64,000 nucleotides of DNA from Cenococcum geophilum (taxonomy: Eukaryota): the NCBI GenBank assembly GCA_050273025.1, contig CP158635.1, positions 14,942,001 to 15,006,000 on the forward strand. The letters are read 5' to 3'. The position numbers and the translations under genes are program-made. Under the pieces are notes generated by a model. It had not been told where the DNA came from. It did not search any database and saw only the letters and a list, made by a program, of their open reading frames with translations. Numbering within the stretch: position 1 is the first letter of the stretch; each line of letters begins with the position of its first letter. Below are positions 4,041 to 51,246 of this stretch, one piece after another.

Positions 4041-5394
4041 AATGTATATCCTTATCGCGATAAGGATATCCATTGCGCCTTATCGCGATAAGATTTATCC
4101 AAAATAACCCTAAATAGTATACCTAATAATTACTAGCTAAAGCCGTAGGATTAATTATAGGATCCTACTAAGAAGTTTAAGGACATCTACTAAAGAGTAT
4201 AAGGATACCTTAAGGAATAGGAGGAGTAATAGAAGTATATAAAGCAGAGCATATAAAATACCTAAGAGCAGTAGAGACTTTAGTACTTTTAATATACTTT
4301 TAGGGCGCTTTTCCTAGTAGTGTAAGTGCTGTAAATCAGGATTAAATACTCTCTTACCCCCTAGCCCTACTCGTAAGCTCTATAGCTTTGCCCTTTTAAA
4401 ATACCCTAAGAGCTTATAATAAAGCTCTATTCTAAATTGCAAGTATATAAGAGGACGCTTGTTTATTATATGTAATTAATATAGCCTATAAGCATTTATA
4501 TAAGCTATGTTAATTAACTAGTAAAATAAGGGCTACTAAGTCCTAAAGGTAGGCTTATAAGTCTCGTACGCTTCCCTAAACTAATTTGCAAGATCTACGC
4601 CTTCTATATATTAATTATAATTATTAATAAAGCAAGAAATCTAAAGCTCTTTTATTGGGGAATCGCCGAATATACACCGGATGATTCGGCTATTTATTAA
4701 GGTCTTTATAGGATACCTTCTTTCCTTTACCTAAAAGTCCTCTGCCTCATCTATAGTATAGATATTACTTAAAGCTAGGATATTATTATTATCCTACTAA
4801 GCTAGGCAAAGTATATCCTAAACTACCGCCGTAAAAAGAGTATTCTATGCAAGCTTTATAGAGAATCGGTTCTTTACCTCTATTAAATCCTTAGGAAACT
4901 CCTTATATGGCCATATAGTACCTACTATTACGGACGCTTTAAGTACGATGTTACGACTACTTGGAGAGGAGTCGGAAGAAGCTAGTTAGTTAATTTAGGC
5001 ACGGTCTAGGATGGAACCGGTAGAACTATGTGACGAGGAATGGTAGCCGAGGTCATATAATGTGCTACGTAGTGTATAAAGGGAACGAGAGGAACTTACG
5101 TACCTTATATATAATACGTATATTACGTATAAGAAGGATTTTATAGGAGTACGGTTGTGTATTTAAGGACCCTTAGTCCCTACCTAGATAGTTTCTTCCT
5201 TGTAGTGATTCTCAGAATATAATTAGAGTTAATCTATTAGGCAACCACTCCACTAGTTATTATTACGTTGTTAACTTTTATTTGCATTACCTATACACCT
5301 AGCCTATTAACGAGCCTATTGTAGTACCTACTACAAGGTTCCGTTATATAATTACTACCTGGTTACGGTATTAAATACAGAGAAGTCGAATAAC

Positions 5395-8390
5395 ATGCCA
5401 CCAAAAGCAGCCACTATAACGCCATCGACGGCGGTAACTACTTTAAGGTTAGGTGACACTAGTATAGCAGATACTAACTTACAGCAACCTATAACGGTTG
5501 GACAACTATAAGAGATAGTTAACTAGCTGATAAAGAATAATGCGGCGCTTAAATAAAGGATTAATGGGATAGGAGCAGCGAAGATTAAATTACCTTTAAT
5601 TAAGAGATTCTTAGGAGAGAGATTAAAGCTTAAAGGATTTCTTACGCAAATGCACTTTAAGGTTATATAAGAAGGGGCGAAGCTACTAACACCTATGGAT
5701 CGAATAGCTTATGCGGGACTATTCCTATTAGGAAAGGCACTTAAGTGGTTTAAGCCTTACCTTATAGAAATATAGGCAAATAGAATAACGACCACTAATT
5801 AAGATATGCGGTTTATGTTCTTAAGTTAAGAAGGATTCGCGGAATAATTTATACAAATGTTTGGAGACCTGGAGGTAGTAACTATAGCGGAAAGAAAACT
5901 TTAAGATATTACGCAGCGAACCTTAGTAATTAAGTACATAATATAGTTCTAAACGCTAGCTATATAAGTTAAGTAGAATAATAGGGCGCTTATAGTATAG
6001 TATAAATAGGGACTTAAGGCTAAAGTCTAGGACGCGATTATTTTAATAGAAGATGCGGACACCCTACGGGAACTAATAGATTAAGTAATTAAGATTAATA
6101 ATTGAATCTACTAAAGGGAGCAGGCTAAGAGAGGCTAAGATAGAGTTTTATAGTTATATAAGGCGCAGAGTACGCATTAACTAAAGCTAAGTTAGAAATT
6201 ATGGTATAGCGTAGAGCTAATGGACCTAAGTGGTACTAAAGAAGCCTATAAAAGATAGAGTAAGAAACTATAAAAACCTAGAGGTTAAGGATCTAGTAAT
6301 TATAGGACTAAGGAGTAGAGGCTAAACCAGGGATCTTATTAGTAGAAGATGTTTAGGCGGACTCTATAGCAAAGTTAATGGTTTAGAAACGGAGCTTGTA
6401 TAAATTGCGGGAAATAAGGCTATTTCGCGAGGGATTATAAAGATAGTTAGAGTTACTATGTAATAAAGGGAACTAGATTAGCAGTAGAAGACATATACGT
6501 ATAGAGGGATAATAGTATACTGCGAGGAACAAAAGAATATTTAATCTAAAGTTTTGCGTTTTGTTATAACAACGCATACTAAATTTATAAAGACGCTAAG
6601 TATGGCGTAAGCTATTAGCTATAGGAGCTAAAATCTATAGAGTATAGAGGAACTAATAAACTAGTTTATAGATCGGATATTAAGGACGATGAATTTAATA
6701 TAGGCGAAATATTTTGTAACAATAAGGTAATAGAGGCGGTTTACTAGGAATACATAGCTATTAGAGATGTTATACTAGAGGTAGAGGATAATTCCACTAT
6801 AGAATAGGGAATATTAGTAGGGATCGAAACCCTACTAGATACGATATCTATCGCTTTGCGAGATATAAGAGAAGTAGAATAGAGAACTACTTCGGCACTT
6901 AATAAAGGCAAAAGGCTAAAGGCTTAAGATTTTTATAATGAAATAAGAGACGACTAAGATTCTTAAGACAAGATAAGGTAAGCTTAAGGACCTATAACGG
7001 ACAATAACCAATAGAGCAGAGTAGCAGCTTAGTTTAAGAATATATAAATAAGCTCGGGATAAGAGTTCCCAACGGCATAAGATTCTTAAGACGAGATAAG
7101 TGAGATTTAAGACTCTTAAGATGAGATAAGAATACTAAAGATGCCTAATAGGACTAAGGCGGGAGCTAAGCTTAAGTTAGAAGTAAGCTTAGGATTAAAA
7201 AATCTAAGGAGCTAAGAATTTGGAGTACGAATAAGAACACCTATAGGTAAAAAGTAAGCGGCTTCTTTATAGATTAGAGAATCTGCGATATAAACAGTAA
7301 CTAGACTAGGAGATAGATATATAGACCTAGAGGACTTACTAGGTAAATAAAGCGTTCAGCTTAAAGATTAAAAGTTTAATATAGAGATTAGGAAGTAGGA
7401 AGACTTTAAAAATCTACTTATAAGACGCAAAAGAAAAGAAACTATAGAGGAGTTTAGAGTAAGAATTACCTTATAGCAAGAGCAGAAACTAATTAAGAGA
7501 TTTAGTAGATTGGATTATATAAGGGACAGAGCACCTATATAAAGAATCACTAATAGGCCTAGAGCAGGTACACTAAGAGCTAAGTAGCTTACTAAACTGG
7601 AATAAGAAGAGAATCTAGGGATTCTAACTAGGTTTAAAGAACGACATATAAAGGGCTATTATAACGCAGTAATAAAAAGATACTTCCTTACGGACGAGCC
7701 GTATATACTTAAAGGGTTATACTAAAAGTGGTATAGACAACGACACAACGATAAGTGGGAAGATTTCTATATATAGTTGGACGAGAAAGTTGCCTAAGAC
7801 CACCTAATTATAGAAAAGGCTATAACTCACATTAAAGGAGCCTTAATTATAACATTAAAGGATCTAAAGGAGTAATTAGAGGACTAAAGAAGCGAGAGGC
7901 AAATTATAGTATCTATAAACGAAGTTGTAACGCTTAAATTAATATAAGAGAGGTTTAAACTTAAGGATAAAGACGAGCTAAGAGTTAACCTAAGACACTA
8001 AGCATATTATACATTGGCGTGGATTATACATGTGGATAATATATATAACATATATAGAGCACCTAAAGATAAAAACCGAAAATATCTAGTAAGGATGTAT
8101 TAGTTATTAGACGAGGCGAAATATTAAAACGCTAAGTATATACATAGTTGGTACCTAATAGAAGTTTAAAAATAAGGGGGCTTAATACTTTAACCAGAAA
8201 AATTCCTTATAGAAGAATGCCTAGATAGACGACAATGGTGGGAATGTTTAGAAAATACCTATCTATAGCATATTAAAGATAAGAAACGAACTAAGTATTA
8301 GCCGAAGTTAGACTAAGTATAAATAGGATCTAGTAGCCAATAGTTAGGAAAAGTAGAGGCCTACGGGACCAGAGGGAACTAGTAGTAGAG
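5395..8390 (+). pseudogene. Gag of copy A, unusually long (~1000 codons)
   Basis: ATG CCA CCA AAA at 5395; CINCGKxGHFARDC knuckle ~6397-6440; further W/F-x2-C-x4-C-x2-H motifs at ~6555, ~8017, ~8237. Confidence 0.75.
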
Positions 8391-11300
8391 CCTTAAACCC
8401 TTAAAGGAATTTAAGGACGACACCTAAATTTATAAATTAAGTAGTAAGATTAACAGTTTGAGGTACTAATAGATAGTGGAGCAATAAGGAACTATATCTT
8501 ACTAGCAGCAGTTAAGAGAATGGGACTACCTTATTGATAGAAGGAGCAACTTTACCTATTAGTTACGATTTTAGGAGATCTAATAGCCTATAGAGGAGGG
8601 ATTATTAACCTTAAAACAGGACCTATTTAGTTAACTATTAAAGGAAAACAGATTAAGATGTCTTTTAATATATTACTATTAGGGAATAATAAGGCAGTAC
8701 TAGGGATGCCTTAGTTACAGAAATACAATCTAAAGATTAATTGGATTATAGGTTAGGTCGATATTAGAGATACTTAACGCCATAAGATATAACAATAAGC
8801 CAAGCTGGTATAGTACTAAGTTAGAGCGATATATAAAGAAACCAAGAAAGGGTTAAGCTATGTACTAAAGAGATACTATAAGTACGGTAAGAAACTATAG
8901 TTACTAGAAAGTAAGAAGCTATTAGAGCATATAGCGTGGGACTATAAAATAGAGTTAGAACTAGAAATAAGTCCAAAATTCTTTCCAATCTATAAGCTTA
9001 CCAAAGAAGAAGGTAGAGCACTTAAAGAGTTTATCTAGGAAAACTTATAAAAGGGATATATTAGACTATCGCAGTTATTAGCGGGTTATCTAGTACTATT
9101 TATACTAAAGAAGAATAGCAAACTAAGGCTATATATCGACTATAGATAGTTAAATAGTATTACTAGAAAGGATAGGTATCCTTTACTATTAATTAGCGAA
9201 ATTTAGGATAGGATAGGCAATGCGCAAATCTTTATAAAGATAGATCTAAGATAGGCGTACTATTAGATTAGAATTAAGAAAGGCAATAAATAGAAGGCAG
9301 CCTTTAAGTTAAAGGAAGGACTGTATAAACTATTAGTTATACAATTCGGGCTTATAAACGTACTAGTAATATTCTAAAAGCGTATTAACAATGTATTAAA
9401 AGAATACTTAGATAAATTTGTTATAGTATACCTTAACAATATTATTATCTACTTAATAACTAAGGAAGAGTATAGAGAACACGTTAAATGGGTTTTAAAG
9501 AGACTATAAGAGGAATAGATGCTAGTAGTAATTGAGAAATGCGAGTTCTTTACTAGGAAGACCGATTTTATTAGATTTATTATTAAACTAGGCTAACTTA
9601 GTATAGATCTAAAGAAGATTAAGGCTATAGTAAATTAGCAAGAACTAGAGAACGTTACACAGTTAAGATTGTTTTTAGGGTTTTGCAACTACTGCAGAAG
9701 GTTTATAGCGCAATAGTTAAAGAATATTAAGCTATTTACGCGATTAATAAAGAAAGAAGAACTGTAAATATAGGGAAAGGAATAATAAGAACTATTTAAG
9801 GAAGTTAAAAGGTTGTTTACCTAGGAGCTAGTTCTTAAAATCTATTAATTAGGACTAGAGACGGTTATAGAGACAGATATATTAGACTTTATACTAGGGG
9901 TATATTTTATATAAAAGCATTAAGATGGATAGCACCTAGTAGTATACTATAGTTAAAAGATAACACCACCGGAGTTAAACTATAACATCTATAATAAGGA
10001 GTTGTTAGGTAGAGTTACAGTACTAAAGAAATAGAGAGCATTCTTATAAGGTATAGAGAAACTATTTATAGTTAAGACGGATTATAAAAACCTAATAGGA
10101 TTCCTAACAATAAAGGAACTTAACTAAAGATAGGTTAGATGGGCAGAGATACTTACAGAATACCATTTTAAGATTTAGTATACTAAGGGTATAGACAATA
10201 CGCAAGCCAATGCGTTAAGTTAAAAGGCTAAACTATAGAATAATAAAAAGCTATTAGGGGCTTTATTACAAAAAGATATAGACGGATTAATTAAATATAA
10301 TTATCCAAAAATCGCAGCAACTTAGGAAGATAAGTTAGAGAAAGTCTACGAGACACTAAAGAGCTTTTAGGTATAAAGAATTCTAAAAGCACAGCTAGAA
10401 GATCTATAGACGGATATATATAAAAATTAAGAAGTAAAGTATATCCTAAGAAGTATAGCAGAGTAGTTTATAGAGGACTTCTATAAGGGACTAACTTAAG
10501 GACATAACAGAGCTATAGGCTTAGTGTTAAGACTTTAAGAGGAGTATATTATTAACGGAATTTAGAGGATAGCTAGGAAGGTTATAAAGGAGTGTCTAGA
10601 TTGCTAAAGGAATAAACTAATAAGGTATAAGCCGTATAGAGGGCTATAACCTATTAAAATACTAAAGAGACTATAAGAGGTTATATTATAGGACTTTATT
10701 ATTAAGTTGCTAAAGTTAAAAAACCCTATTACTGGATAAGATTATAACGTAATCTTAGTAATAGTAGATAAGCTTATAAAGTGGGGATACTTTATAGTAT
10801 ATATAGAAGAAATCTTAGTGGAAGATATCGCTAAAATCTATATTAAAGAAGTATTTATAAGATATAGAGCACTAAGCAAAATTATATTAGATAGAGATTT
10901 AAGATTTATAATAGTATTCTAGGAGGTATTTTTAGTAGAATAAGGAGTTAGAGCAGTAACTTTTACTGTATATTATCCGCAGACAGACAGTTAAACGGAA
11001 AGATTAAATTAGACACTAGAACAGTATCTAAGACATTATATTAATTACGCATAGAATAATTAGGTATCATTACTACTAGTTATATAGTTTATATATAATA
11101 TAATACTATAAGAAGGAATAGGTATATTACCATTTAAGGCGAATTATGGATATAAGCTAAGGATATTATTATCGCTACGTTAAGTAAAGAAGATAAGTAG
11201 TATAGCTAAATAAAGAATGGAGACTTTAATAAATCTTTATAAGAACTTTATAAAAATAGCTAAGGTAGTATAATAGAGAATAAAAAAGTACTACGACGCT

Positions 11301-11760
11301 AAGAGATCTGAGGGACTAAATCTTAAGGAGGGAGATAAAGTATAGCTACTATATAAAAATTTTAAGAGTTAATAACTAAGTAAGAAGTTGGACTATGTTA
11401 GACTAGGACCTTTTAAAATTATTTAGAGGATTTTACTAGTTATATTTAAGTTAAACCTACTAGCTAAAATAAAGATCTACCCTATATAGCATATTGTAAT
11501 GCTAGAGCTAGCATATAGGAATATTAAGCTATTGGTTTATAAAGTAAACAAGTATAAAGGACAGGAAGAAGACAAATAGCAAGTTTTAAGGATTATTAGT
11601 TATAAGGACGTTAACAATAAAACATAGTACGAGGTTAAGTAGATAGGCTATAATAAGACTACCTAGGAACTACTAGAAAATTTAAAGAATACTATAGGAA
11701 AGGTATAGGAGTATTAGAAGAAAATAGGTTAGGTAATATTAATAAAGAAGGATCGCTAAA
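8345..11760 (+). pseudogene. Pol of copy A (protease, RT, RNase H, integrase, chromodomain)
   Basis: LIDSGA ~8467; LRLCIDYR ~9123; YLNN (RIPed YLDD) ~9429; YHPQTDGQTERLN ~10970; chromodomain-like segment ~11570-11720. Confidence 0.9.
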
Positions 11761-12343
11761 GAATGAGTTACCTAAGGGGGACCTAGAAAGAGCGACTACT
11801 AAACTACTTAAAGTTGTTTCCTTTACTATAGGACAAGAGTCGGTTCTTTTATTACTAAGTTCCTATAGACCCTATTCTATAAGCTTCTACTCCTTAAAAT
11901 AGACCTTCTTACGTACTTTCTTAAGATAAAGTAATTAAGTAGACGCCATAATATAAGTATTTAAGGCCTTTTGTTCTATATCCTAAGAACGCTTAAGCTC
12001 TATAAAAGCCTACGCTAGATTACTATTAAGCTTTACAGTAGTAGATTAAATATAAGACCCTATAATAAATTACTTAAGGAATATAAAGACTACTAAGAGT
12101 TATAGGATGTGTATACTTAGCGTTAGAAGTAGAACGAACGTTATAAGAGGAACGAATGTTTGCTTTAGTACACTTTAAATAAGAAGAGGGCTGTTAAGAC
12201 AAAGGACTCGCTAACGCGACGTAAACTAACCCCTCTTTCGCACAATAAGAATATGGAGATAGTATAATTTCACCTAGTAATAATATAGTAGTAATAGTGC
12301 GAGTATAACATTACGCGCGTAAAGAAAAAGATACTTTAGGTAT
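11740..12343 (-). pseudogene. Antisense accessory ORF (Zn2Cys6-like + coiled coil) of copy A
   Basis: Homologous to 13543-14147 in copy B; second Cys codon (TGT) intact here. Confidence 0.6.
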
Positions 12344-13542
12344 AATAAGTAAAGATATTAACTAAATTAATTAGACGGATATTACACCTCTAGTAAATAA
12401 TTTAGAGATATTAGGAATCTTTAAGGACGAAGATAAAAAGGAGGGAGATAGTGTTACGGACGCTTTAAGTATAATATTATAACTACTTAGAGAGGAGTTA
12501 GAAGAAGTTAGTTAGTTAATTTAAGCACGGTTTAGGATAAAACCGGTAGAACTATATAATAAGGAATAGTAGCCAAGGTTATATAATGTGCTATATAGTA
12601 TATAAAGGGAACGAGAGAAACTTATATACCTTATATATAATACGTATATTATATATAAGAAGGATTTTATAGGAGTACGGTTGTGTATTTAAGGACCCTT
12701 AGTCCCTACCTAGATAGTTCCTTCCTTATAGTAATTCTTAGAATATAATTAGAGTTAATTTATTAGGCAACCACTCCACCAGTTATTATTACGTTGTTAA
12801 CTTTTATTTATATCACCTATACACCTAGCCTATTAACGAGCCCATTATAGTACCTGCTATAAGGTTCCGTTACACCTATAGCACTAAATTTATAAGCTTG
12901 TAGCTCTAAAAATAGGGGTATTAATATAAAGTAGTTGTCTATATATATTATAAGGTAACGGCATAGGAGGGAAAGCGTAAGATTGCGTATAAGACACCTT
13001 ATATTTATAAGGGTTATATAATAAAGCCTTATAGTAGGAACTACGGTAGACTTATTAATGGGCTAGGTATATAGGTAAATAGGAAGTTAACAACGTAATA
13101 ATAACTAGTGGAGTAGTTGCCTAATAGATTAACTCTAATTATATTCTAAGATTTACTATAAGAAAAGAACTATCTTAGTAGGGACTATAGTCCTTTAAAT
13201 ACACAACTATACTCCTAAGAAATCCTCCTTATATATAATGTACGTATAGTACGTAAGGTATATAAGTTCCTTATATCCCTCTTATTTAGTACGTAGTATA
13301 TTATATAACTTTAGCTACTATTCCTTATTATATAGCTTAATTAGTTTTATTCTAGACTATACCTATATTAACTAACTAGCTTCCTTTAACTCCTCTCTTA
13401 ATAGTTATAATATTATACTTAAAGTGTCTGTAATACTATCTCCCTCCTCTTTATCTTTATCCTTAAAGATTTCTAATATTTTAAGTTATCTACTAGAGGT
13501 ATAATGTCCGTCTAATTAATTTGGTTAATATTGTTACTTATT

Positions 13543-14147
13543 ATACCTAAAGCCTCTTCTTTTTTATACGCGTAACGCTATGCCCGCACTATTACTATAA
13601 TATTATTACTTAGTAAAATAATACCGTCTCCGTGTTCTTATTATATAAAAGAGGGATTAGTTTATATTACGCTAGTAAGCCCTTTATCTTAGTAACCCTC
13701 TTCTTATTTAAAGTGTACTAAGGCAAACGTTCGGTCCTCTTATAATATTCGTTCTACTTCTAACGCTAAGTATACGCGTCCTATTACTCTTAGTAGTCTT
13801 TAAGTTCCCTAAGTAATTTATTATAGGGTTTTATATTTAGTCTACGGCTATAAAGCTTAATAATAACCTAGCGCAGGCTCTTGCTAAGCTTAAGCGCTCT
13901 TATAACGCGAAGTAAAAGGCCCTAGATACTTATATTGCGGTATCTACTTAATTACTTCGTCTTAAAAAGGTTTATAAAAAGGTGCGTTTTAAGAAGTAAA
14001 AACTTATAGAATAAGGTTTATAGGAACTTAGTAATAAAAAAATAGATTTTCTTTTAACTAAAAAGGAAATAGATCTAAGTAGTTCGGCAACTGCTCTTTT
14101 TAGGTCCCCCTTAGGTAACTCATTTTTTAGTAATCCTTTTTTATTAA
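13543..14147 (+). pseudogene. Antisense accessory gene of copy B: Zn(II)2Cys6-like cluster, predicted intron 13772-13826, coiled-coil exon
   Basis: C-x2-C-x6-C-x13-C-x2-C-x8-C after reverting TAT->TGT; internal stops are all TAA/TAG as expected from RIP of CAR/CGR codons. Confidence 0.65.
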
Positions 14148-14310
14148 TACTACCTAACCTAATCTCTTCCAATACTCCTATACCTTTCTTATAGCGTTTT
14201 TTAGGTTCCCTAGTAGTTTCTAGGTAGTCTTATTATAGCCTATTTACTTAACCTTATACTATATTTTATTATTAATATCCTTATAACTAACGATCTTTAA
14301 AACTTACTAT

Positions 14311-17300
14311 TGTTACGGACGCTTTAAGTACAATGTTACGACTACTTGGAGAGGAGTTAGAAGAAGCTAGTTGGTTAATATAAGCACGGTTTAAGATAGA
14401 GCCAATAGAGCTATATAACGAGGAATAGTAACTAAGGTTATATAACGTAATCTATATTATCTATATTATCTATAGGATCCGTAATAGAGTAAATAGAGCA
14501 CATATACCTCACGTATAAAGGGGATTTCTTAGGAGTACGGTTGTATATTTAAAGGACCACAGTCCCTACCTAGATAGTTCTCTCCTTTGTAGTAAATCTT
14601 AGAATATAATTAGAGTTAATCTATTAGGTAACCACTCCACCGGTTATTATTACGTTATTAACTTCTTATTTACCTATATACCCAGCCTATTAATAAGTCT
14701 ACCGTAGTTCCTACTACAAGGCTTTATTATATATTTACTACTAAGGTTACGGTATTAATAAAGTCAAATAACATGCTACTAAAAGCAGCTACTATAACGC
14801 TATTAACGGCGGTAACTACTTTAAGATTAGGAAACGACACTAGTATAGTAGACACTAACTTATAGTAATCTGTGACGGTTAGACAATTATAAGAGATAGT
14901 TAACTAGCTAATGGAAAATAATGCGATATTAGAAAATAGGATTAACGGGATAGGAGTAGCGAAGATTAAGTTACTATTAATTAAAAGGTACTTAGGAGAA
15001 AGATTAAAACTTAAAGGATTCCTTATATAAATACACTTTAAGGTTACGCAAGAAGGAGTAAAGCTGCTAATACCTATAGATCGAATAGTATATGCGGGAC
15101 TATTCCTATTAGAAGGGGCACTTAAGTAGTTTAAATCTTACCTTATAGAAATATAAGCGAATAGAATAACGACTACTAATTAAGAAGTATGGTTTATATT
15201 TATAAGCTAGGAAGGGTTTACGGAATAACTTATATAAATATTTAGAGACCTAAAGGCAGTAACTATAGCAGAAAGAAAACTTTAAGATATTATATAATGA
15301 ACCTTAGTAATTAAGTATATAATATAGTTTTAGATATTAGCAATATAAGTTAAATAAAATAATAAGGCGCTTATAGTATAGTATAAGTAAGGACTTAAGG
15401 CTAAAGTCTAGGATATAATTATTCTAATAGAAGATACGGAGACCCTACGGGAATTAATAGATTAAGTAATTAAGATTAATAATCGGATCTACTAAAGGGA
15501 GTAGGCTAAGAGAGGCTAGGATAGAGTTTTATAGTTATATAAGGCGTAGAGTACGTAATAACCAAAGCTAAGTTAGAAACTATAGTATGGCATAGAGCTA
15601 ATAGACCTAAGTAGTACTAAAGAATCTAAAAAATAAAATAAGAAATTATAGAAATTTAGAGGATAAGAATTAAGTAATTAAAGGTTTAAGGAGTAGAGGC
15701 TAAACTAGGGATCTTAATAGTAAAAGACATTTAGGCGGACTCTATAGCAAGAAAAATAGTTTAAAAAAGGAGCTTATATAAATTGCGGAAAATAAGGTTA
15801 TTATATTAAAAACTATAAAAGTAGGCAGAGTTACTATATAGTAAAAGGGATAAGACTAGTAGACGATATATATATATAGAGGGATAATAATATACTATAA
15901 GGAACAAAAGAATATTTAATTAAAAGTTTTGCGTTTTATTATAATAACGTATACTAAATTTATAAAGACACTAAGTATAGTATAAGCTATTAGCTATAAG
16001 AGCCAGAACTTATAGGATATAGGGGAACCAACGAACTAGTTTACAGATCGGATATTAAGGATAATAAGTTTAATATAGGCGAAACATTTTATAATGATAA
16101 GGTAATAAAGGCGGCTTACTAGGAGTATATAGATCTTAGAGATGTTATATAAGAGGTAGAGGATAATTCTACTATAAAATAGGGAACATTAGTAGGGATT
16201 AAGACCCTACTAGACACGATATCTATCGCTTCGCGAGACGTAAGAGAAGTAGGATAGCGAACTACTTCGGCACTTAATAAAGGTAAAAGGCCAAAAGTTT
16301 AAGATTCTTAAGACGAGATAAAAGATAACTAAGATTCTTAAGACGAGATAAGGTAAGCTTAAGGACCTATAACGGATAATAACCAATAGAGTAGAGCAAC
16401 GGCTTAGTTTAGTAATATATAAATAAGCTTAGGACGAAGTTTCCTAAAGGTATAAGATTCTTAAGACAAGATAAGTAAGATTTAAGACTCTTAAGATAAG
16501 ATAAAAATACTAGTAAAGCCTAGTTAGACTAAGGCTAGAGCTAAGCTTAAGATAGAGGCAAGCTTAAGATTAAAAATCTTATAGGACTAAGATTTTAGCA
16601 ACAGAATAAGGACTATTAAAGAAATTGCGAGTAAGGCTTAACAACCAGATTAAAATGTTAATACTAAAATTAAGAAGTAAGAAGACTTTAAGGATCTATC
16701 TATAAGACGCAAACTAAAAGAAACCATAAAAGAGTTTAGATATAGAATTATCGTATAGTAAGAATAGAAACTAGATAAGAGATTTAGTATATTAGGTTGT
16801 ATAAGGGATAGAGTATTTATATAAAGAATTACTAATAGGTTTAGGGCAGGCATACTAAGAGCTAAGTAGCTTACTAAACTGGAAAATAAAGAGGATCTAA
16901 GGATCCCTATTAGATTTAAAGAACGATATATAAAGGGCTATTATAACGCAGTAATAAGAAGATACTTCCTTATGGATAAGCCGTATACACTCTAACAGCT
17001 ATACTAAAAGTAGTATAGGTAACTGTTGGTAACATAAGGTGATATCACGTATCTACAAGTTATAGGTAGTATGATAATTGTTATTCTATATTCCTCTTAC
17101 TTAAGGAAGGGCGAGGAGCTTAGGGCTCCTCGCCACGCTAGTGCCGCGGCGACACGTAACGGCAACTTGCCTCACGTAATGGCAACTTACCTCGCGTAAC
17201 GGCAACTTACCTATATTCCTAACACTAGCAACTCTTTTTTTGCGGTTACTATCTATATATATATACCGCTCGACTAGCATAATAAATATTAATTCTCCTT

Positions 17301-20300
17301 ATTTACTATTGCTATTATAATATAAGTCTCGCTGTCCTAAAATATGCCTCTTAGCACGTAGTGCTTTCTTACTTAGGAGTTATAGGTAGATATCTTATTA
17401 GGAGGGCCGCTAAGGCGCTAGTAGTAAGTAAGCTAATAGCAATTTTCTATCCCGGGGATAGAAAATCCTAATTAGCTGGTTTAAGTTAGGGTTTACAGAA
17501 TATTATACTCCTACTCCCTTTTAACTTAACCTTTAACTTATATACGTAGAGTATTTATATTAATAAACATCTCTAGTACCTTATTTGGGTTCGCCTTTGT
17601 TATTATATCTACTAGGTTATCTTAGCTATTAATTTATTAAATCTTAAATAGTTCTTAACACTTATAGGATTGCTAAAGTGCTATAATATTAATTATAAGG
17701 CGCTTTTCCTTTGTGGTACCAAGTTTGACTAAATACTCGTAGAGGGAATATAAGTTAGTGTATATAATCGTAAGGATAGCAGAAAGTTTAAGTTGATCTA
17801 TAATTATCTTTAGGGTAGTTCTAATTGTAATTACTATATTAACTCTGCTAACTATTCTATATATCTCTAACGCTAGAACGCTTTAAGTAACGCGCTTACT
17901 CTTAGTTAAGCTCTAGTAGATAAGATTACTATAGATTATAAAGTTATTCTCTTTAGTGGATTCGTTTGCAATAATAATTTTATATCCTAGCTAAAAGCTA
18001 AAATCTTTATTATTTATAAACGATCTATTAATAAATATAAAGAGCTTAGCGGTGGGAAGATTAATAGGCACGTAGAGTAGTCCCTAATTAAGATGGTTCA
18101 TTTACTAGGAAAAACGTTTATTTAGGGCAAAAATGTTATCCTTAGTTAGTTCCTAGTGTTAGGCGGCAATAGAAAGATTAAATAAAGCCTTAGGTTAATA
18201 AATAGAAGCAATATACGCTTTATAAGCGCGTTACTCTACATATCTTTGCTTTAAAGAATTAACGTTAATAACGTTAATTTTTTTGCCTTAACCCTTCTGG
18301 CGTAAAGCAATAGAATCCTTATTTAGGGCGAGGATACATTTATTAAAGAGTAATGGTATTATTAAATTAAGCTTTTCCTTTGGCTTTACTATAAGATTTA
18401 CCTTTACTAGCTTATCTTCTTTAAGAGCTAAGAACTAATCGTCTCCTAAGATAATTATATTATTAGTTTATATACCAACAATTCTAAATAAAGTTCCTAT
18501 AATTGTGATAAGGAAGTAGGGATTAAATATAGAAGTAGTTATTAAAAGCTTCTCTTTATAGTGCTTGCTGTAGGTAGCCTACTAGTAAGTTCCTACCTCT
18601 GCGATTCTATATAATAGCTTAAATACAACTATAATCGTATCTTTAGGATACTGGTAGCGAATTTACTCCGGAAGGTATGCTAATATTAAGCGCTAAAGGT
18701 GCGTCTCTAATTGGGTATAGGCTTAAGTAATATCTTATAAATAAACCGCTATTCTATTCTTTATTAAGGAGGGAGCTAGCGTAATAATAACTTGCTAACT
18801 AGCTCGTTAAATTATAAGAGATTGCGTAAGAATTACCTCCTTACTATTATTGTTATAACTTTAGATAATAAGCCTTAATTTCTCCAATAGGGCATTAGTA
18901 GCTTTACCTTTAATCTTATTAACCATTCTTGACTTAAAGATGCGAACTTTATTAAACTTAGTAAGGTTATACTTCTTAAATTTAAAAACTCCTCTTATAA
19001 TAAGATTGTTGATCTCCTGCTTATTAGATGCTTAGAAAGGAGCTTTAGGAGTTATAATATAACCTTTCTTTTAGAGCTGTTTTGCGAGCTTAAAGTTAGC
19101 CTTCTCCTTAGTTATTATAAAGGCTATTAATAACTTAATTCCATTCTTAATAGCGGTAATAAATTACTCTTCAAAATTAACAAGATATTGGTAATTTTAT
19201 AATCTCTTTAGGCGACCTCTACCGCGTTATAGTTGCGACATATCTACTATAATTATATTAGGATTGTAGCTGTCTTCTAGAGTATATTAATCGTAGTTCC
19301 CCTCTAGGGCATCTTTTAGGGCATCCTGTAAAGGCTTAAAACTATTATCTTTATAGTAAGGCTTGATAACGGTTAAATAGAATTAAGTGGGTCTGTAAGG
19401 CATCTAAATAGTATAAGTTTAACTATTAATTATAATAAGTTAATATAGACCTAACTATTCTCCCTTTTTACGCTATACGTGTACCTTAGACTAGAGTGGT
19501 AAATTAAGCGTAGTTAAGGTATTTAGGCTATTTCTTATTCCTAGTACGTTGTTGACCTAGCTTATAGCGTAGAGACGTCGTACCTCCTTCGTTACCTTAT
19601 AAATAGCCTTAGTTTATTATATAATAGAGGGAGATAGCAGAGAATTATTAGTTATTTAAGGGTAGGCGCTAAAGACTAGCAATATGGGTATAAGTTTATC
19701 CAGGCCAGCGGAATCGTTAATGGCTTTAATAGCCATTTATAAGGTAAGTTCTTCGCTAGCGTCCTTTAGTTCTAAAGAGATAATTTTATATACGCGGCGT
19801 AATAGCGCATAATATCGCTCTACTTTTTTAATACTATTATATGCCTTAATAGGGACTTCCTTAACCTTAATTGCCATTGCCTTTGTCTATTATTAAAACT
19901 CTATAGATAAGAAATTCTTTCTTATATTATGGACGATTTAATTAGGGGGTCCTAGGTAGATATTAATCTAGTATAATTATAGGGTATCTTATGCATTCTT
20001 AGCTAATATATCCTTTAAGAAACGTGCGGCTTAGAAGAAGGTTAAGAAGTTAATAACTTAGAGTACTAGCTTGCCGCTAAGATATATAACGTTAACGATA
20101 ATATAGAAGTTAAAGTTATAGTTATCTTTAAGGGTGAACTTATATCGGCTAGGGGACTTCTGGTTTATTTGGTAGTAATAGTAGTATTTTATAAGATACT
20201 TAATTGCCTTAACCTTAACTTTATGGCCTGCTTACTAAAGAACCCTAAGTAATTAATAAACGGATAGGTGGCTAAAACAACGGTGTAGTTGGCGTAACTC

Positions 20301-23300
20301 TAACTTAGTTAAGTGGCTCTAAGTAACGCTCTTTTCTAGTTGTTAAAGGAGCAACTAAGGGTAACCCTACTTACGTATAATAGGCACCCGATTATCTCCC
20401 TATATAAGTATATTCTTAAGGTTATTAAGCTTAACGCCTAATTTATTTATATCCCTAATATAGAATAGAAATGGGGTGTTTATGGGAATAATATAGAAAG
20501 TAATGTATCCTAAGGGGGTTTAGACCCTAATTATGCCGAGAGAGATTATAGTACCTTTGCTAAAACAAATCGTATATTAGCCTGCCGTTAAATAGTTAAT
20601 CTAAATAGAGCTATTAAGCTGCTAAAGGGTTTAAACTTAAGGTTCTCCTATTATAGATACTCCTGCGGCTCTAGTGTCTGGCATAATACTATAAAAGCCG
20701 TTTACTAAGTATCTATCGTTAAAGGAGAACGTAAAACTCTCCTTTAGCTCGCTAAAGATATCTAACTTCGTAATAGAGTGGAGCGTAGATTAATCATTAA
20801 GAACAGCGACGGTTTGTATACTATTTACCTTACTATACTTAGTAAAGTATTAGTTAGGTAAGTAGTTCTTAATTTCTATATCTATAAGGAGCTATTTAGC
20901 CTTATTAACCTTACCCTTAAGATCTTTTACGCCTTTATATTAAACTAGGAAGCTTTAGAAGTAGGCCGTAGTAACCTTATAATTTCTAATATTTCTTATA
21001 CTCTGGCGAAACTTATTATATACCTCCTTTTGTTTATTAAAAGAATGCCTAGTTAACTAGCAATTTGGTTTCTTATAAACGTAGCACTTCTTCTAGTAAT
21101 TACTTCGGAATAAACCTCTATAAGGACCTCCATAATTGCCTTATAGTTAACGTTAATTATACCCTTTACTATATTCTACACACGGCTACCATATATTTAG
21201 TTAGTCTAGTTATAATTATATTAGTTAGGTAGGGTTTTTAGTATAGAACTATTAGGATTCTTATATTTATATTATAGTACCTATAGCGGAGCGTAGCTCG
21301 GTATATACTCCTTTAAATATATCTATAGGTTTATATAGCGCTAAATTACACTTAGGAATGCTACGGCAGGCTAAGATAACCTAGTCCCTTAGGCTGTTCT
21401 TATTTTAGTAAGTTTCGGTAAGGCCACGTTAGATTTTCTAGAGTTTATTAAAGAGTAGTTAAAGGCACTCTAAATAAGTCTTTATTAAATTAGAAGCGAT
21501 AACTCTTTAAAATATAGTCTTCTACTATTTAGACATATAAAGCTGGCAATTCTTATTAGTCTTAAAGTGGGCTCTAGTAAGCTAAAGTATTATATTAAAG
21601 CTATAGTTTCTACCCGCAATATAGTTATAATAAAATATTACTGCCCGTCCCTTTAATATAATAGAGAAAGCGTAATGGTACTGGTGGCTCTAAATTTTAA
21701 CTTTGTTGCAACAGTTATAAAAGACCTATAGTTTTATTCCGAGTATATTATACAGTTCTTCTTTAAACTTCTTCTCTTCGTCTAAATATACCTTTATTAG
21801 ATTCGTGACTTCTTATAGTAGAGGCTTACCGGTTAACTAGGATAGAGGAGTTAAAGGCAGCGAAGGAGGTGGAGGAAGAGCACCTTTAGGTAGGAGGGCA
21901 CCTTTTAGTAGGAGAGTACCTTTAGGTGGGGAATTAGCGTTCTGGGGGTTTTAATATAAATTAAAGTTACCTTTTAAAAAATATAGGTTGGTTTTAGGTT
22001 TCCGTAGTTAACGTATAATCTTAGTTTCCGTCTATACTAGTTCTTCTATACTAATAATAACGGCCTAAATATTACTAGTAATTGGGTTACCGTTCTTAGT
22101 AATATATACCCTATTTCTATAAAAGAAGTCTTAAAAATCCTAAACAATATTAACGTTACTAAGTGCCTAGGTATTAGCAGTCTATCCTATAAAATCCTCC
22201 CTAAAATACTCCTATAGTTGTGAATCGGCGTAGTATCTATTTTAGTAAAATATAATATAGTGTAGAAGAAAGCCGTTAACCCGTTTTATAGTATAAGTTG
22301 TTATATTAAAGGCGAATTTGTCCTAATTTTTATCGATAAGTTTCGCGTACTTAGCTACCCCTAGTAGTAAGGAGTCTTTCCAGTTATTTAGAGTAGCTAT
22401 ATTTTTAGAGGAAGGGATATATTGTCGGTATAGGGATTATTATTTAGTACGCGTTTATAACAAGAATCTGCAATTATAGGGCTTAGGACTAGTTCTAGCC
22501 TTAAATTACAAGGACTTATAAAGCGTATTATTCTGCGTAATAGACACAAGAATCTATAATCTAGGAAAGGCTTAGGACTAGTTCTAGCCTTTTAAATCCT
22601 TAAATTTGTGGAAGAGTTTTATTTAAGGTTTAGGACTAGTTCTAACCTTAAAAGATAGCTTCCTCTAGCACGAGTAGCACTAGTATAGTAGCTCGTCTCT
22701 TCTTAGTGGAATACCTAGCTGTTTTATAATATAACAGTAAAGTTAACTACTAATTAGTATTGGTAATATAAGGTAATATTACGTATCTACAAGTTGTAGG
22801 TAGTATAATAATTGTTATTCTATATTCCTCTTGCTTAAAGAAGGGCGAGGAGCTTAGGGCTCCTCGCCACGCTAATGCCGCGGCAACACGTGACGGCAAC
22901 TTACCTCACGTGACGGCAACTTGCCTCGCGTGATGGCAACTTGCCTATATTTCTAATAGTAATGACATAATAATAAATAGGAAGATTTCTATATATAGTT
23001 GGATAAATAAGTTATCTAGGACCACCCTATTATAGAGAAGGCCATAACTTATATTAAAGGAGCCTTAATTATAACATTAAAGGATTTAAAGGAACGATTA
23101 GAGAACTAGAGGAGTAAAAGGCGCATCTTAGTACCTGCGAATAAAGTTATAACGTTTAGATTAATATGGTAAAGGTTTAAACTTAAAAATAAAAATAAGT
23201 TAAGAGTTAACCTAAAGCACCTAGTATACTATACGCTATTATAGATTATATACGTAGACAATATATATAAAATGCATAAAAATCCAAAGGAAAAGAATTA

Positions 23301-26300
23301 GAAATACCCTATAAGGATATATTAGGCGCTAGATAAGCAATAGTATAGAAATGCCAAGTATATATATGGCTAGTATTTAATAGAGGTTTAAAGGTTAGGA
23401 GACTTAATACTTTAACTAGGAAGATTCCTTACGGAAGAATGCTTAGATAAATGATAGTAATAAAATACCTAAAAAACACGTGTCTATAGTATATTAAAGA
23501 TAAAAAGCGAACTAGATATTGGCTAAAGAGCAAGCCAAGTATATAAAAATTAAGTAGCTAATAGTTAGGAAAAGTAGAGGCCTACGGGATTAAAGGAAGC
23601 TAGTAGTAGAGCCTTAGACCCTTAAAGGAATTTAAGGATAATACCTAAATTTACGAGTTAAATAGTAAGATTAACAGTTTAAAGTACTAATAGATAGTGG
23701 AGTAATACGGAACTATATCTCTTTAGTAGTAGTTAAAAGAATAAAATTGCCTTATAGACAGAAGGAGTAACCTTACCTATTAGTTACGATTTTAGAAGAT
23801 CTAATAGCCTATAGAGGAGGGATTATTAATCTTAAAATAGGACCTATTTAAATAACTATTAAAAGAAGATAAATTAAGATATCTTTTAATATCCTACTAT
23901 TAGGACGGGATAAGGTAGTATTAGAAATACCTTAGTTATAGGAATATAATCTAAAGATTAATTAGATTACAAGTTAGGTCAATATTAAAGATACTTAACG
24001 CCGTAAGATGCGACAGCAAACTAAGTTAGTATAGTACTAAGTTAGAGTAATATATAAAGAGACTAAGTAAGGCTTAAGTTATATACTAAAGAGATACTAT
24101 AAATACGGTAAGAAACTATAGAGCCTAGAAAGTAAAAAGCTGGCAAATTATATAGCATAGGACTATAAGATAGAGTTAGAACTAGAAATAAGTCTAAAGT
24201 TCTTTCTAACCTATAAGCTTACTAAAGAAGAGTCTAGAGCACTTAAAGAGTTTATCTAGGAGAACCTATAAAAGGGATATATTAAACTATTATAGTTATT
24301 AGCAGGTTATCTAGTATTATTTATACTAAAGAAGAATAGGAAACTTAGGCTATGCATTAACTATAAATAATTAAATAGCATTACTTAAAAGGATAGGTAT
24401 CTTTTACCCTTAATTAGCGAAATTTAGGATTAGATAGGTAATGTATAAATCTTTATAAAGATAGATCTAAGATAGGTATACTATTAGATTAGAATTAAGG
24501 AAAGTAACAAATGGAAAGTAGCCTTTAGGTTAAGAAAAGGACTATATAAGCCATTAGTTATACAATTTAGATTAATAAATATACCTATAACATTTTAGAA
24601 ATAAATTAATAGTGTATTAGAAGAACACCTAAATAAGTTTATTATAGCATACCTTAATAATAATATTATTTACTTAATAACTAAGGAAGAGTACGGGGAA
24701 TACATTAAATAGGTCTTAAAGAGACTATAAGAAGAATAGATGCTAGTAACAATTAAAAAATGCGAGTTCTTTATAAGAATAACCGATTTTATTAGATTTA
24801 TTATTAAACTAGGTTATATTAGTATAGACCTAAAGAAGATTAAAGCCATAGTAAATTATTAAGAACTAGAGAATGTAATACAGTTAAGGTTATTCTTAGG
24901 GTTTTGCAACTACTACAGAAGGTTTATAGCATAGTAGTTAAAGAATATTAAACCGTTTACCAGGCTTATAAAAAAAAAAGAGAAACTATAGGCATAGGGA
25001 AATAAGTAAAAGAAGTTGTTTAAAGAACTTAAGGAGTTATTTACCTAAGAGCTAATCCTTAAAATCTACTAACTAGGACTAGACACGGTTATGGAAATAG
25101 ATATATTAGACTATATATTAGGAGTATACTTACTATAGAAGTATAAGAATATATAGTATCTAGTAATATATTATAGTTAAAAGATAATACTACTAGAGTT
25201 AAACTATAACGTCTATAACAAGGAGTTATTAGGTATAGTTATAGTACTTAAAGAATAAAGAGTATTCTTATAAGGCGTAGAGAAACTATTTATAGTTAAA
25301 ACGGATTATAAAAACCTAATAGGGTTCTTAATAACAAAAGAACTTAATTATAGATAGGTTAGATAGGCAGAAATACTTACAAAATACCATTTTAAGATTT
25401 AGTATACTAAAGGAACTAAAAATGCAAGGGTAAACGTACTTAGTAGAAAAGCTAAACTATAGAATAATAAGAAGCTATTAAGAGCAATACTACGCAGAGA
25501 TAAAGATGGATTAATTAGGTATAATTACCCTAAACTAGCAGCAACTTAAGAAAATAATAAATTAGAAAGAGTCTACAAGATACTAAAAAGCTTTTAGGTA
25601 TAAAGAATTCTAAAAGCATAGCTAGAAGATCTATAGATAGATATATATATAAAAATTAAAAAGCGAAGTACATCCTAAAGAGTATAGTAGAGCATTTTAT
25701 AGAAGATTTTTATAGGGGAATAACTTAAGGACACAATAGAGTAATAGGCTTAGTGTTAAGACTTTAAAAAGAATATATTATTAATAGAATCTAGAATATT
25801 ATAAGAAAAGTAATAAAAGAGTATCTAAATTACTAAAGAAATAAACTAATAAGGTATAAGCTATACAGAGGGCTATAACCTATTAAAATACTAGAGAGAC
25901 TATAGGAGGTTATATTATAGGACTTTATTATTAAGTTATTAAAGTTAAGAAATCCTATTACCGGATAAGATTATAATATAATCTTAGTAATAGTAGATAA
26001 GCTTATAAAGTGGGGATACTTTATAGCATGTATAGAAGAAATCTTAGTGGAAGATATCGCTAAAATCTATATTAAAGAAGTATTCGTAAAATACGGAGCA
26101 CTAAGTAAGATTATATTAGATAGAGATTTAAGATTTATAGTAATATTCTAAAAGGTATTCTTAGTATAATAAGGAGTTAGAGCAGTAACTTTTACTATAT
26201 ATTATCCGCAGACAGACGGTTAAATAGAAAGATTAAATTAGACGCTAAAGCAGTATCTAAGATATTATATTAATTATATATAGAATAATTAGGTATCGCT

Positions 26301-28102
26301 ATTACTAGTTATATAGTTTATATACAATACAATACTATAAGAAGGAATAGGTATATTACTATTTAAGGCAAATTATAGATATAAGCTAAGAACATTGTTA
26401 TTACTATAGTAAGTAAAGGAAATAAGTAGCACAGCTAAAGAAAGAATAAAGACACTAATAAATCTTTATATAGACCTTATAAAATTAGTAAAAAAAGTAT
26501 AAAAAAGAATAAAAAGGTACTATAATACTAAGAGATCTAAGGGACCAGATCTTAAGGAGGGAGATAAAGTATAGCTACTATATAAAAATTTTAAGAGTTA
26601 ACAACTAAGTAAGAAGTTAAACTACATTAGACTAGGACCTTTTAAAATTATATATAAGTTAAACCTACCAGTTAAGATAAAGATCTACCCTATATAGTAT
26701 ATTGTAATGCTAGAGCCAGTATATAGAAATATTAAGCCACCAGTTTATAAAAAAGACACGTATAGAGAACAAAAGGAAGACAAATAGTAAGTTTTAAAGA
26801 TCGTTAGTTATAAGGACGTTAACAATAAAATATAGTACAAAGTTAAGTAGATAGGCTACACTAAGACTACCTAGAAGCCACTAGAGAATTTAAAAAATGC
26901 TATAAGAAAGGTATAGGAGTATTAGAAGAAATTAGGTTAGATAGCATTAATAAATAAAAAATCGCTAAAAAATAAGTTACTTCAGGGGAACCTAAGAAGA
27001 GCAGTTGCTAAACTACTTAGATCTATTTCCTTCTTAGTTAGAAAAAAATCCGTTTTTTTATTACTAAGTTCCTATAAACCTTATTTTATAAGTTTTTACT
27101 CTTTAAAATAAACCTTCTTATAAACCTTCTTAAGATAAATTAACTAAGTAAACGTAGCAAGATAAGAATTAAGAGCCCTTTACTAAGCTTTAGCAGCCTT
27201 TTACTTAGCGTTATAAGAATAATAGAGTTCTAATAATATAATAGACAGTTTATTATTTAGCCGCGTAGCAGCAGATTAAATATAAAACTTTAAGATAAAT
27301 TAGTTAAGGAACTAGACAACTATTAAGAGTAATAAGTTACGTATATTTAGTATTAGAGATAAAGCAAACGTTATAGGACAAATAAATATTCGCTTTAGTG
27401 CACTTTAAGTAAGAGGACGGTTGTTATAAAGATGGACTCGCTAATATAATATAGACTAACCCCTTTTTTAAACAGCAAGAATACGGAGATAGTATAATCT
27501 CACTAAGAGATAATATTATAGCAACGGTATAAGACTGGTAAACTATAGACAAAGAAGAAGGAGCCTTAGGTATAATAAGTAATAACGCTAACTAAATTAA
27601 TTAGATAGATATTATACCTCTAGTAAATAACTTAGAGATATTTAGAATCTTTAAGGACAAAGATAAAGAGGAGGGAGATAGTATTATAGACGCTTTAAGT
27701 ACAATATTATAACTACTTAGAAAGGAGTTAGAAGAAGCTAGTTAGTTAATATAAGCATGGTTTAAAATAAAGCTGATAGAGCCATATAATAAGGAATAGT
27801 AACTAAGGTTATATAATATAATCTATATAATCTATAGGATCTATATAATCTATAATAGAGTAAATAAAGTATACGCACCTTACGTATAAAGGGGATTTCT
27901 TAGGAGAATAATTGTATATTTAAAGAACTATAGTCCCTACCTAGATAGTTCTCTCCTTTATAGTAAATCTTAGAATATAATTAGAGTTAATCTATTAGGC
28001 AACTACTCTACTAGTTATTATTACGTTATTAACTTCTTATTTATCTATATACCTAGCCTATTAATAAATCTACCGTAGTTCCTGCTACAAGGCTTTATTA
28101 TA
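14311..28102 (+). mobile_element. Ty3/Gypsy chromovirus, copy C, nested in B and interrupted by a Copia
   Basis: 421-bp LTRs 14311-14731 and 27682-28102; TSD ACTAT at 14306-14310 and 28103-28107; gag/pol collinear with A. Confidence 0.95.
17024..22958 (-). mobile_element. Ty1/Copia retrotransposon D (RIPed), nested in the gag of C
   Basis: 201-bp LTRs 17024-17224 and 22758-22958, each with 3x ~20-bp CACGTGACGGCAACTTGCCT; TSD GTAAC/GTAAT; minus-strand order gag, PR (IMPDTGAAG ~20670), IN (EAHNSIGKVERYHAPL ~19830), RT, RH (IRWINGQDNPADAMTK ~17620). Confidence 0.92.
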
Positions 28103-33007: not shown

Positions 33008-33194
33008 TGTCACAGCACTGACCTGACACGTTGTTATAACTTAGTGTTGTTATAACACAAGTACAGACCTAACCCCTAAGCGACGTGTATATATATCGCC
33101 TCACCTCCTACATAGATCCTCACACGACATCGTTTGTCAATTATATACAGTCACCTCGTATATCGTACCTTGACAGTCGGCACGTACTGTAATA
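33008..33194. mobile_element. Solo LTR (187 bp) in the gag of copy B
   Basis: TGTCACAG...CTGTAATA termini; TSD TAGTA/CAGTA; absent at the equivalent site in A and C. Confidence 0.85.
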
Positions 33195-43200: not shown

Positions 43201-43284
43201 ATTCTCGTTTATAGACAATCCAATTGTACAGGCTTGCGCAACCCTTTTGCCGTGCTTATGTCTCAATTGACTAAGTCGCTAATA
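37280..43284 (+). mobile_element. Ty3/Gypsy chromovirus E (second family, RIPed)
   Basis: 246-bp LTRs 37280-37525 and 43039-43284; TSD ACTAC; G-rich PPT before 43039; CFSCGxxGH knuckle at 38701; YLDNIIIYS in the ORF track (40291-40491); integrase and chromodomain ~42640-42790. Confidence 0.95.
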
Positions 43285-50814: not shown

Positions 50815-51075
50815 AGTTAGTCGTATTTTCGTTGGTCGTATTTTCGTTGGTTGTATTTTCATCGGTCGCAAAAATCGTCAGTCGCAAAACTCGTCGGTCG
50901 CAATCTTACCTCGCTGCTCTGCTCGAAGCTCTGCATGAGGTTCTGCTCGAAGCTCTGCACGAGGCTCTGCTCGAAGCTCTGCACGAGGCTTTCTTGAAGC
51001 TCTGCACGAAGGCTTTTCTCGAAGCTCTGCACGAGGCTCTGCACGAGGCTCTGCTCGAAGCTCTGCTCGAAGCTC
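50815..51075. repeat. 15-bp (GTCGTATTTTCGTTG-like) then 12-bp (CTCGAAGCTCTG/CACGAGGCTCTG) minisatellites
   Basis: Directly visible; they generate the low-complexity ORFs in the track. Confidence 0.9.
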
Positions 51076-51246
51076 CATACCTTATATACTTCTCTACGTC
51101 TAATTATCTCTAAAATACTACGAGGTAAAAGCTCTTTATCTTCTCTATCGTCTCTACGTTATAGCAATATTATAGCTCTATTCTACAAGAAGTTAGTCAT
51201 AGGTAGTTGGTCTAGTTTTAAAATCCTATCATAATCTTGCCTTACT

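Follow-up and report, generated by a model that had tools for sequence, protein, structure and literature searches.

A spliced antisense gene encoding a six-cysteine, coiled-coil protein appears to overlap an extended Pol frame in a RIP-mutated chromoviral Gypsy family

The analysis of a 64,000-nucleotide stretch of Cenococcum geophilum DNA (hereafter, the window) indicates that a family of chromoviral Gypsy elements carries, on the strand opposite to pol, a two-exon gene for a protein with six cysteines and a long predicted helix. This antisense gene is almost certainly real and has evolved under selection. On the other strand, the Pol frame very probably runs about 290 residues beyond the chromodomain, to a fixed stop in the U3 of the 3′ LTR, and about 700 bases appear to be coding on both strands. 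The initial annotation had placed the gene between pol and the polypurine tract (PPT); this was a misplacement, the gene being located inside the Pol reading frame, on the opposite strand.

The window consists of AT-rich, fungal DNA with a strong signature of RIP everywhere except at 45-50 kb. A single Gypsy family accounts for three copies (A, B and C), each with a pair of LTRs and a target-site duplication, and copy B is split by the nested copy C. When stops were read as X, Pfam searches on element A detected capsid, protease, RT, RNase H and integrase domains. The family shows the hallmarks of chromoviruses (Ty3/Gypsy), namely, LTRs, gag, the PR-RT-RH-IN order in A and a chromodomain after the integrase; in the Pol of L003, an intact relative described below, Chromo (PF00385) scores above the Pfam cut-off. 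A, B and C are RIP-mutated chromoviral Gypsy copies. The main features are:

4926-12874 (+): element A, with an LTR pair and a target-site duplication
13017-34777 (−): element B, delimited by an LTR pair (91.6%, self-BLAST), its junctions, the target-site duplication GGTTA and tblastn with L003 Gag and Pol
14311-28102 (+): element C, within the chromodomain region of B
13017-13435 (−): 3′ LTR of B, which may contain the promoter for the antisense gene
13436-13450 (−): polypurine tract of B, seen in the sequence and read through by the Pol frame

The antisense gene can be followed in all three copies:

13543-13771 (+): exon 1 in B; the start codon is ATA in B and ATG in L003
13633-13743 (+): Cys motif in B, C-x2-C-x6-C-x13-C-x2-C-x8-C, with 2 of 6 Cys left
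13772-13826 (+): intron in B, 55 nt, phase 1, donor now AT, acceptor TAG, likely branch A at 13816
13827-14030 (+): helix part of exon 2 in B, a predicted long amphipathic helix or coiled coil, modeled on the relative P0163
14031-14194 (+): tail of exon 2 in B, acidic and Pro-Ser-rich, stop at 14192-14194
11692-12343 (−): copy in A, with exon 1 at 12343-12115, intron at 12114-12060 and exon 2 at 12059-11692
26900-27573 (−): copy in C, with exon 1 at 27573-27345, intron at 27344-27290 and exon 2 at 27289-26900

The cysteine codons of B, spaced 2-6-13-2-8, start at 13633, 13642, 13663, 13705, 13714 and 13741, and the motif recurs at 12253 (−) in A and at 27483 (−) in C. The antisense frame with this spacing is therefore present in the three copies where the initial annotation had located it, and codon reading bears out its statement that cysteines 1, 2 and 5 are intact in at least one copy and the remainder are TAT or TAC. 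Specifically, Cys1 is TGT in B alone, Cys2 is intact in A and C, Cys5 is intact in all three copies, and Cys3, Cys4 and Cys6 are TAT or TAC throughout, so that no copy retains all six cysteines. The end of the frame had been set at 14147, wrongly; the actual end is the stop at 14192-14194. The 55-nt segment begins with AT in A, B and C, leaving no GT donor in the window, and ends with TAG in A and B and with TAA in C. Exon 2 of copy C includes a 21-nt in-frame extra segment that is common to L003. Compared to L003, the three copies show 136-167 C>T/G>A changes and 22-24 changes in the reverse direction, and the gene is, to judge from these sequences, dead in A, B and C through RIP. With Cys or Tyr codons permitted, the exact spacing occurs three times in the window, exclusively in A, B and C, with 0.05 occurrences expected, whereas a loosened GAL4 spacing yields 2 additional matches against 1.7 expected. 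Because the loosened spacing occurs at about the chance level, a lone RIPed copy is weak evidence, and the proof rests on the relatives.

Homologue searches that started from the RIPed frames led to the database protein P0131 and then to P0163, which has all six cysteines and the residues E-W-S at the exon junction. Seeds from the RIPed copies retrieved mainly RIP-like unspliced read-throughs, and six cysteines were found in 2 of 161 proteins. A metagenome scan, with patterns that demanded C or Y at Cys positions 1-3, confirmed 417 relatives, of which we analyzed the best 80; these come from six assemblies and are mutually related. The middle gap is 13 residues long in all 80 loci; 32 of them have a GT donor, 47 have AT, and 1 has a different dinucleotide. 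Within the same set, 491 of the 492 aligned codons in the six Cys columns are TGY or TAY, such that, RIP aside, the cysteines are invariant. Locus L003 combines six cysteines, a 55-nt GT-AG intron (GT...TAG) and an open spliced frame of 210 codons with a GC content of 0.49 and the absence of a RIP signature. The L003 contig (1-7513) spans one element length minus one LTR and begins and ends with the same stretch of Pol, which points to a collapsed multi-copy repeat or a one-LTR circle of an intact family free of the RIP signature.

Among the best 80 of 417 loci, the length of the intron could be estimated in 49; it is 55 nt in 33 of these, 127 nt in 8 and 61 nt in 5, the other lengths being 130, 54 and a doubtful 28. 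The 3′ end is TAG in 46 of the 49. An invariant A within a TRAY core occupies intron position 45 (window 13816) in all 33 of the 55-nt introns and is likely to be the branch site; the previously suggested site, ctaag, has to be abandoned given that L003 reads CTCGT there. The exact spliced junction E-W-S is found in nine database proteins, and this, together with the GT-AG ends in L003, substantiates the earlier proposal that the 55-nt segment is an intron joining E-W to a heptad-rich exon. In one cluster at 90%, an intron-read form, P0234, from a 120-kb contig is grouped with four spliced forms whose contigs are short; the latter are probably transcripts. Searching four RNA runs against copy A at 80% likeness yielded 115 raw reads, none at 99% identity; there is no joint at the intron in the reads on copy A, and strand and splicing are unreadable from these 115 reads. 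Two variants were also observed. L001 (1255-1262) has lost most of the intron; its exons 1 and 2 are fused in frame (P0131), and its Pol frame is shifted. In P0182, the N-terminal read-through is LTR-like and far nearer the ORF than it is in the genomic read-through P0184, hinting at an additional 5′ intron and a start within the LTR in this subfamily.

The gene is overlapped by the following Pol features:

13315-14305 (−): C-terminal extension of Pol in B, RIP-broken, with most of the chromodomain and about 290 codons
13315-13317 (−): terminal stop of the extended Pol in B, inside U3
8400-12572 (+): Pol frame of A, a single frame that crosses the antisense gene and ends with the U3 stop, 12570-12572

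In L003, no stop interrupts the Pol frame over 1242 codons from the contig edge; it crosses the antisense gene with its intron and the PPT and enters U3. Residues 896-1229 of this Pol align to B at 14303-13336, with a 1-nt frameshift in B near 13482; in A, one tblastn HSP connects residues 2-1233 to 8877-12563 (56.8%). A stop at the matching position of U3, TAA (59) or TAG (13), was found in all 72 locatable loci among the best 80 of 417, and the U3 motif is in frame in 72 of the 80, out of frame in none and not found in 8. In the same set, the chromodomain motif is in register with the Pol frame in 40 of the 42 loci where it was found. The lengths of the intron are informative as well: the difference from the L003 intron is a multiple of 3 in 26 of the 27 differing loci among the best 80 of 417. 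Counted as distinct lengths, 5 of 6 differ by multiples of 3, compared to 7 of 20 distinct lengths beyond the Pol stop. Because the antisense gene does not require this periodicity, it counts in favor of an open Pol frame. Likewise, anchor distances across the untranslated leader and the PPT are multiples of 3 in 73 of 73 and 76 of 76 loci, respectively (among the best 80 of 417), and just 18 of the 97 gap events beyond the Pol stop are. In U3, only 1 of 11 single pairwise gap events is a multiple of 3, the net sums alone showing this property, and we accordingly relied on the anchor distances.

The overlap in L003 contains no stops. Synonymous shuffling of exon 2 produced 3.9 stops on average, and zero in 0.4% of the cases (P0=0.004); for exon 1, the mean was 1.8, with zero in 6%. 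Among the best 80 of 417, L003 is the sole relative that is stop-free along the entire Pol tail. The stops in the other loci are put down to RIP, from which 1762 of 1840 are derivable, compared to 2114 of 2444 and 1788 of 2452 in the controls; inside the introns of partly RIPed loci, the stop counts do not tell the frames apart. A conserved acidic motif of the Pol frame lies just before the PPT (window 13436-13530 (−); L003 3926-4010) and is kept across families with 55-, 61- and 127-nt introns; it may represent the functional end of the Pol tail. According to the available text of one report, long 3′ UTRs trigger nonsense-mediated decay (PMC5031192). The Pol tail might have been kept open to avoid this decay, but this idea is retained as a minor possibility only: gag and pol are in different frames, so that most ribosomes would stop about 4 kb upstream anyway.

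Because RIP makes no transversions, these were used to read selection in the RIPed copies. In the window copies alone, third positions account for 13 of the 18 transversion columns in exon 1 and for 15 of the 24 in the coil, and the phase of the third position shifts across the intron in A, B and C. Within the Cys module, the value for third-position transversions is 0.144 where the antisense codon is fourfold degenerate (n=20) and 0.008 where the Pol codon alone is (n=13; p=0.0008). We further calculated pN/pS between L003 and 11 low-RIP loci (9-11 per region; among the best 80 of 417). The antisense frame is the more constrained one in the coil (0.47 vs 1.06 in the Pol frame) and in the Cys module (0.30 vs 0.38), whereas the relationship is reversed in the antisense tail (0.86 vs 0.48). 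For the Pol frame, pN/pS is 0.29 beyond the antisense stop; in the leader, its value of 0.51 is the lowest of the six frames; in U3, it is 0.62 and not the lowest, another frame having 0.41 and the control LTR 0.74-0.99, and constraint by the Pol frame in U3 is therefore doubtful. Constraint thus alternates between the strands. Going by these comparisons, the antisense protein dominates the Cys module and the coil, and Pol dominates the chromodomain-proximal part and, probably, the acidic motif before the PPT. The three tests on which the initial annotation had staked the gene in advance, namely the presence of the six cysteines, of a GT donor and of codon-level constraint, all came out in favor of the antisense gene.

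The protein of about 210 amino acids consists of a basic N-terminus, the six-Cys module, a helix of about 70 residues and an acidic tail. The coiled-coil exon postulated previously gains support from the AlphaFold2 model of P0163, with a helix at 77-151 and a pLDDT of 90-99 over residues 81-152. The Cys module is poorly folded in the models (pLDDT 51-60), and fold searches with these low-confidence models gave no match. Modeled as a homodimer with zinc, the protein scored 0.51 compared to 0.02 for the best control, with a pLDDT of at least 82 and agreement between runs in at least 90% of the contacts. For comparison, 21 of 30 solved homodimers came up to this mark, as did 0 of 23 monomers; among eukaryotes, the figures were 17 of 29 and 0 of 30, respectively. 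The modeled dimer is antiparallel and long, residue 136 pairing with 97 and 115 with 115. The model supports homodimerization via the helix, with the proviso that a long helix may pass by likeness to solved coiled coils.

What the protein does is a matter on which we can offer a proposal of about even standing: the six-Cys protein would bind two zinc ions, homodimerize and act in the nucleus on the DNA or chromatin of its own element, setting its transcription. In this scheme, the antisense transcript would presumably start in the 3′ LTR and then be spliced at its one phase-1 intron, which would persist since it is the opposite strand that is packaged as genomic RNA. The cysteines are predicted to bind two zinc ions per monomer, and the helix would form the homodimer; by analogy with HBZ of HTLV-1, the dimer would set the transcription of the element. 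If the model is correct, the antiparallel arrangement would place the zinc heads at opposite ends, which would suit the bridging of distant sites or partners and not binding to a CGG pair of the GAL4 type.

Alternatively, but with a rather low probability, the protein might counteract silencing by the host: it would bind sequences of the element and block heterochromatin, DNA methylation or RNA silencing, instead of acting directly on transcription. Proteins of this kind are encoded by plant DNA transposons, VANC being an anti-silencing protein of such elements, and the gene has been kept under selection in a heavily RIPed lineage. Nevertheless, Pfam and PDB reveal no similarity to a known anti-silencing protein, most of the carriers are RIP-mutated, so RIP was not prevented, and antisense transcription over pol would feed RNA silencing, as argued for such genes in the accessible part of a review (PMC7264820).

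A role in the retrotransposition machinery appears unlikely to a similar degree. Here, the zinc module and the rod would bridge integrase and chromatin, or else serve nuclear import or particle assembly, and the bridged part of the integrase could possibly be the very acidic Pol tail that the gene overlaps. Such a role would fit the absence of a GAL4-type recognition loop, the modeled antiparallel rod with two distal heads, which suits bridging, and the open tail of Pol with its conserved acidic motif; moreover, the review of plant elements, as far as its text is available, suggests import or integration roles for such ORFs (PMC7264820). However, chromodomain integrases already target chromatin, and overlapping genes need not have interacting products.

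It is quite improbable that the protein is an ordinary, host-captured GAL4-family Zn(II)2Cys6 factor that binds CGG triplets in the LTR. In the GAL4 type, the cysteines follow the pattern C-x2-C-x6-C-x5-12-C-x2-C-x6-8-C, the loop between Cys2 and Cys3 has, at +4, a basic residue that reads CGG, and a short parallel coiled-coil dimer adjoins the cluster. The likeness to the GAL4/PPR1 cluster (PF00172) consists in the six cysteines spaced 2-6-n-2-8, the apparently dimerizing helix that follows them and weak sequence matches. The GAL4-like spacing recorded in the initial annotation is near canonical, with a middle gap of 13 residues, one above the commonly quoted range. All 14 aligned members with the module are matched by Zn_clus (PF00172), which is among their top Pfam matches, with a best E of 0.0012, but all these matches are below the cut-off (best score, 19.3 bits vs 21), and in 5 of the 6 intact exons tested, the match is confined to the second half of the model (positions 17-38), mainly with the first CxxC-x6-C. 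The best PDB sequence match is PPR1 (E 0.56), where again the first CxxC-x6-C is paired with the second half. DUF3716 (PF12511) scores about equally, with a full-model match in 9 of 14 members and a best score of 18.5 bits vs a cut-off of 22. In the 19 six-Cys loci among the best 80 of 417, the Cys2-Cys3 loop is AKEGLV (CAKEGLVC) in 11, and the basic residue at +4 is found in 1. The LTR of L003 contains one CGG-N12-CCG pair that would suit a GAL4 factor; however, the CGG and CCG triplets are not conserved, each reference triplet being found in at most 49 aligned loci among the best 80 of 417, and we dropped the LTR sites as evidence of GAL4-type binding. Together with the sub-cut-off scores, the missing basic loop, the predicted antiparallel helix of about 70 residues and the overall size of about 210 amino acids set this protein apart from the GAL4 type, and its assignment to the Zn(II)2Cys6 proteins of that type is not sustained.

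Finally, it is scarcely credible that the antisense frame is a mere shadow of the Pol tail, or that antisense RNA alone matters: the wobble positions of exon 1 and the Pol frame do coincide, as in the classic shadow phase, and the Cys module has a low pN/pS in both frames, but this reading is already contradicted by the degeneracy test, which favors the antisense strand, by the coil, where the frames are offset and the antisense frame alone is constrained, and by the precise splicing of the intron in nine proteins.

Building on the proposal of a zinc-binding dimer that acts on its own element, the family could have a 3′ end resembling that of complex retroviruses, with a functional Pol tail reaching U3 across the PPT and, from the spliced antisense gene, a protein that would represent a zinc-cluster class not described before, its antiparallel dimer controlling or bridging the element's chromatin or integrase and the intron being bound by the Pol frame. 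We put this broader picture forward tentatively, as somewhat doubtful in its entirety.

Homologues of the antisense protein in the databases searched yielded no named match. The ESM Atlas returned unnamed Ascomycota clusters alone, with scores up to 0.85 (a lead), the RIPed antisense frames of the window had no match in Pfam, and the viral contigs searched produced two marginal 20-residue matches and nothing more, which were not used. The closest described system is the brtn gene, which is said to have been reported by Zhao et al. (2011, Virology 417:248). In the portions of the literature available, brtn is described from Boty/BcGypsy1 (Botrytis cinerea, Sclerotinia), a chromodomain Gypsy element, where it occupies the 3′ end in antisense orientation (PMC7264820, PMC8365987, PMC4227169). 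Judged by description, the two systems are alike in that a chromodomain Gypsy element of a fungus has an extra antisense gene at its 3′ end; they differ in that these portions of the accounts place brtn between pol and the 3′ LTR and give no Cys motif or function, whereas the window gene is within the open Pol frame.

Among retroviruses, HIV-1 has the antisense frame asp over env. The hbz gene of HTLV-1, in the accessible text of its description, is transcribed antisense from the 3′ LTR, is spliced and encodes a coiled-coil protein that regulates the virus's own transcription (PMC10186651). These are analogies without homology: hbz and asp are retroviral, HBZ is a bZIP protein and has no Cys module, and in the present family, the overlapped gene is pol. 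Plant elements carry aORF-3R genes (Grande gene23, RIRE2, Retand, PvRetro13), conserved antisense ORFs near the 3′ LTR whose function is given as unknown, with nuclear localization in one case, in the part of the review available (PMC7264820). They differ from the gene described here in that they are located in a long stretch that separates pol from the LTR, with no pol overlap described in that part, and encode unrelated proteins. DUF3716 (PF12511), according to the accessible text, occurs in REP9-1/-2 of a Zymoseptoria DNA transposon (PMC8232023), which is, similarly, a short Cys-rich fungal domain carried by a transposon; the difference lies in the sub-cut-off score and the class of element. 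Antisense 3′ genes as such are already known in plant elements and in Botrytis Boty from the available portions of several reports (PMC7264820, PMC8365987, PMC4227169, PMC3248453, bioRxiv 2022.03.07.483234); in the literature searched, in which subscription journals are thinly covered, we found no prior report of the Cys motif or of a pol overlap in fungal elements.

The function of antisense accessory genes of LTR retrotransposons is described as not established in the accessible part of the review (PMC7264820), and this chromovirus family provides an example that is small, intact and amenable to testing and whose domain layout is defined. That the gene overlaps Pol implies that a new spliced gene can be accommodated in a retroelement without lengthening the element, that the Pol of this family would exceed by about 290 residues the length expected from domain-based annotation, and that the intron length and codon choice of one gene can be set by a gene on the opposite strand. 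If it is true that the protein regulates or shields the element, it would be a fungal counterpart of the retroviral antisense regulators.

Several additional features of the elements and the window were observed. The Gag is very long, 947 amino acids in L003 (3457-614 (−)), with a window counterpart at 5395-8379 (+); in L003, it extends for about 600 residues beyond the CCHC knuckle and contains further Cys/His motifs, with no significant Pfam match, and its frame differs from that of Pol. The gag of B shows two alignments to the L003 Gag around 33008 (31308-33008 and 33008-33195), with about 190 extra bases compared to A and C. A second Gypsy family, with 242-nt LTRs and a Pol about 30% identical to that of L003, is found at 37282-43282; the antisense proteins had no match there in a window-wide tblastn search. 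Inside the gag of C, an element with 197-nt LTRs (D; 17023-22960) completes a three-level nest, B > C > D. The sole island without the RIP signature contains a stop-free frame of 851 amino acids at 45826-48381 (−), with about 16 ankyrin repeats of 35 amino acids (a 105-nt period) that are 75-78% identical and have been spared by RIP. A direct repeat pair of 142 nt is located at 50916-52208, and internal repeats with moderate RIP are present at 60805-62806.
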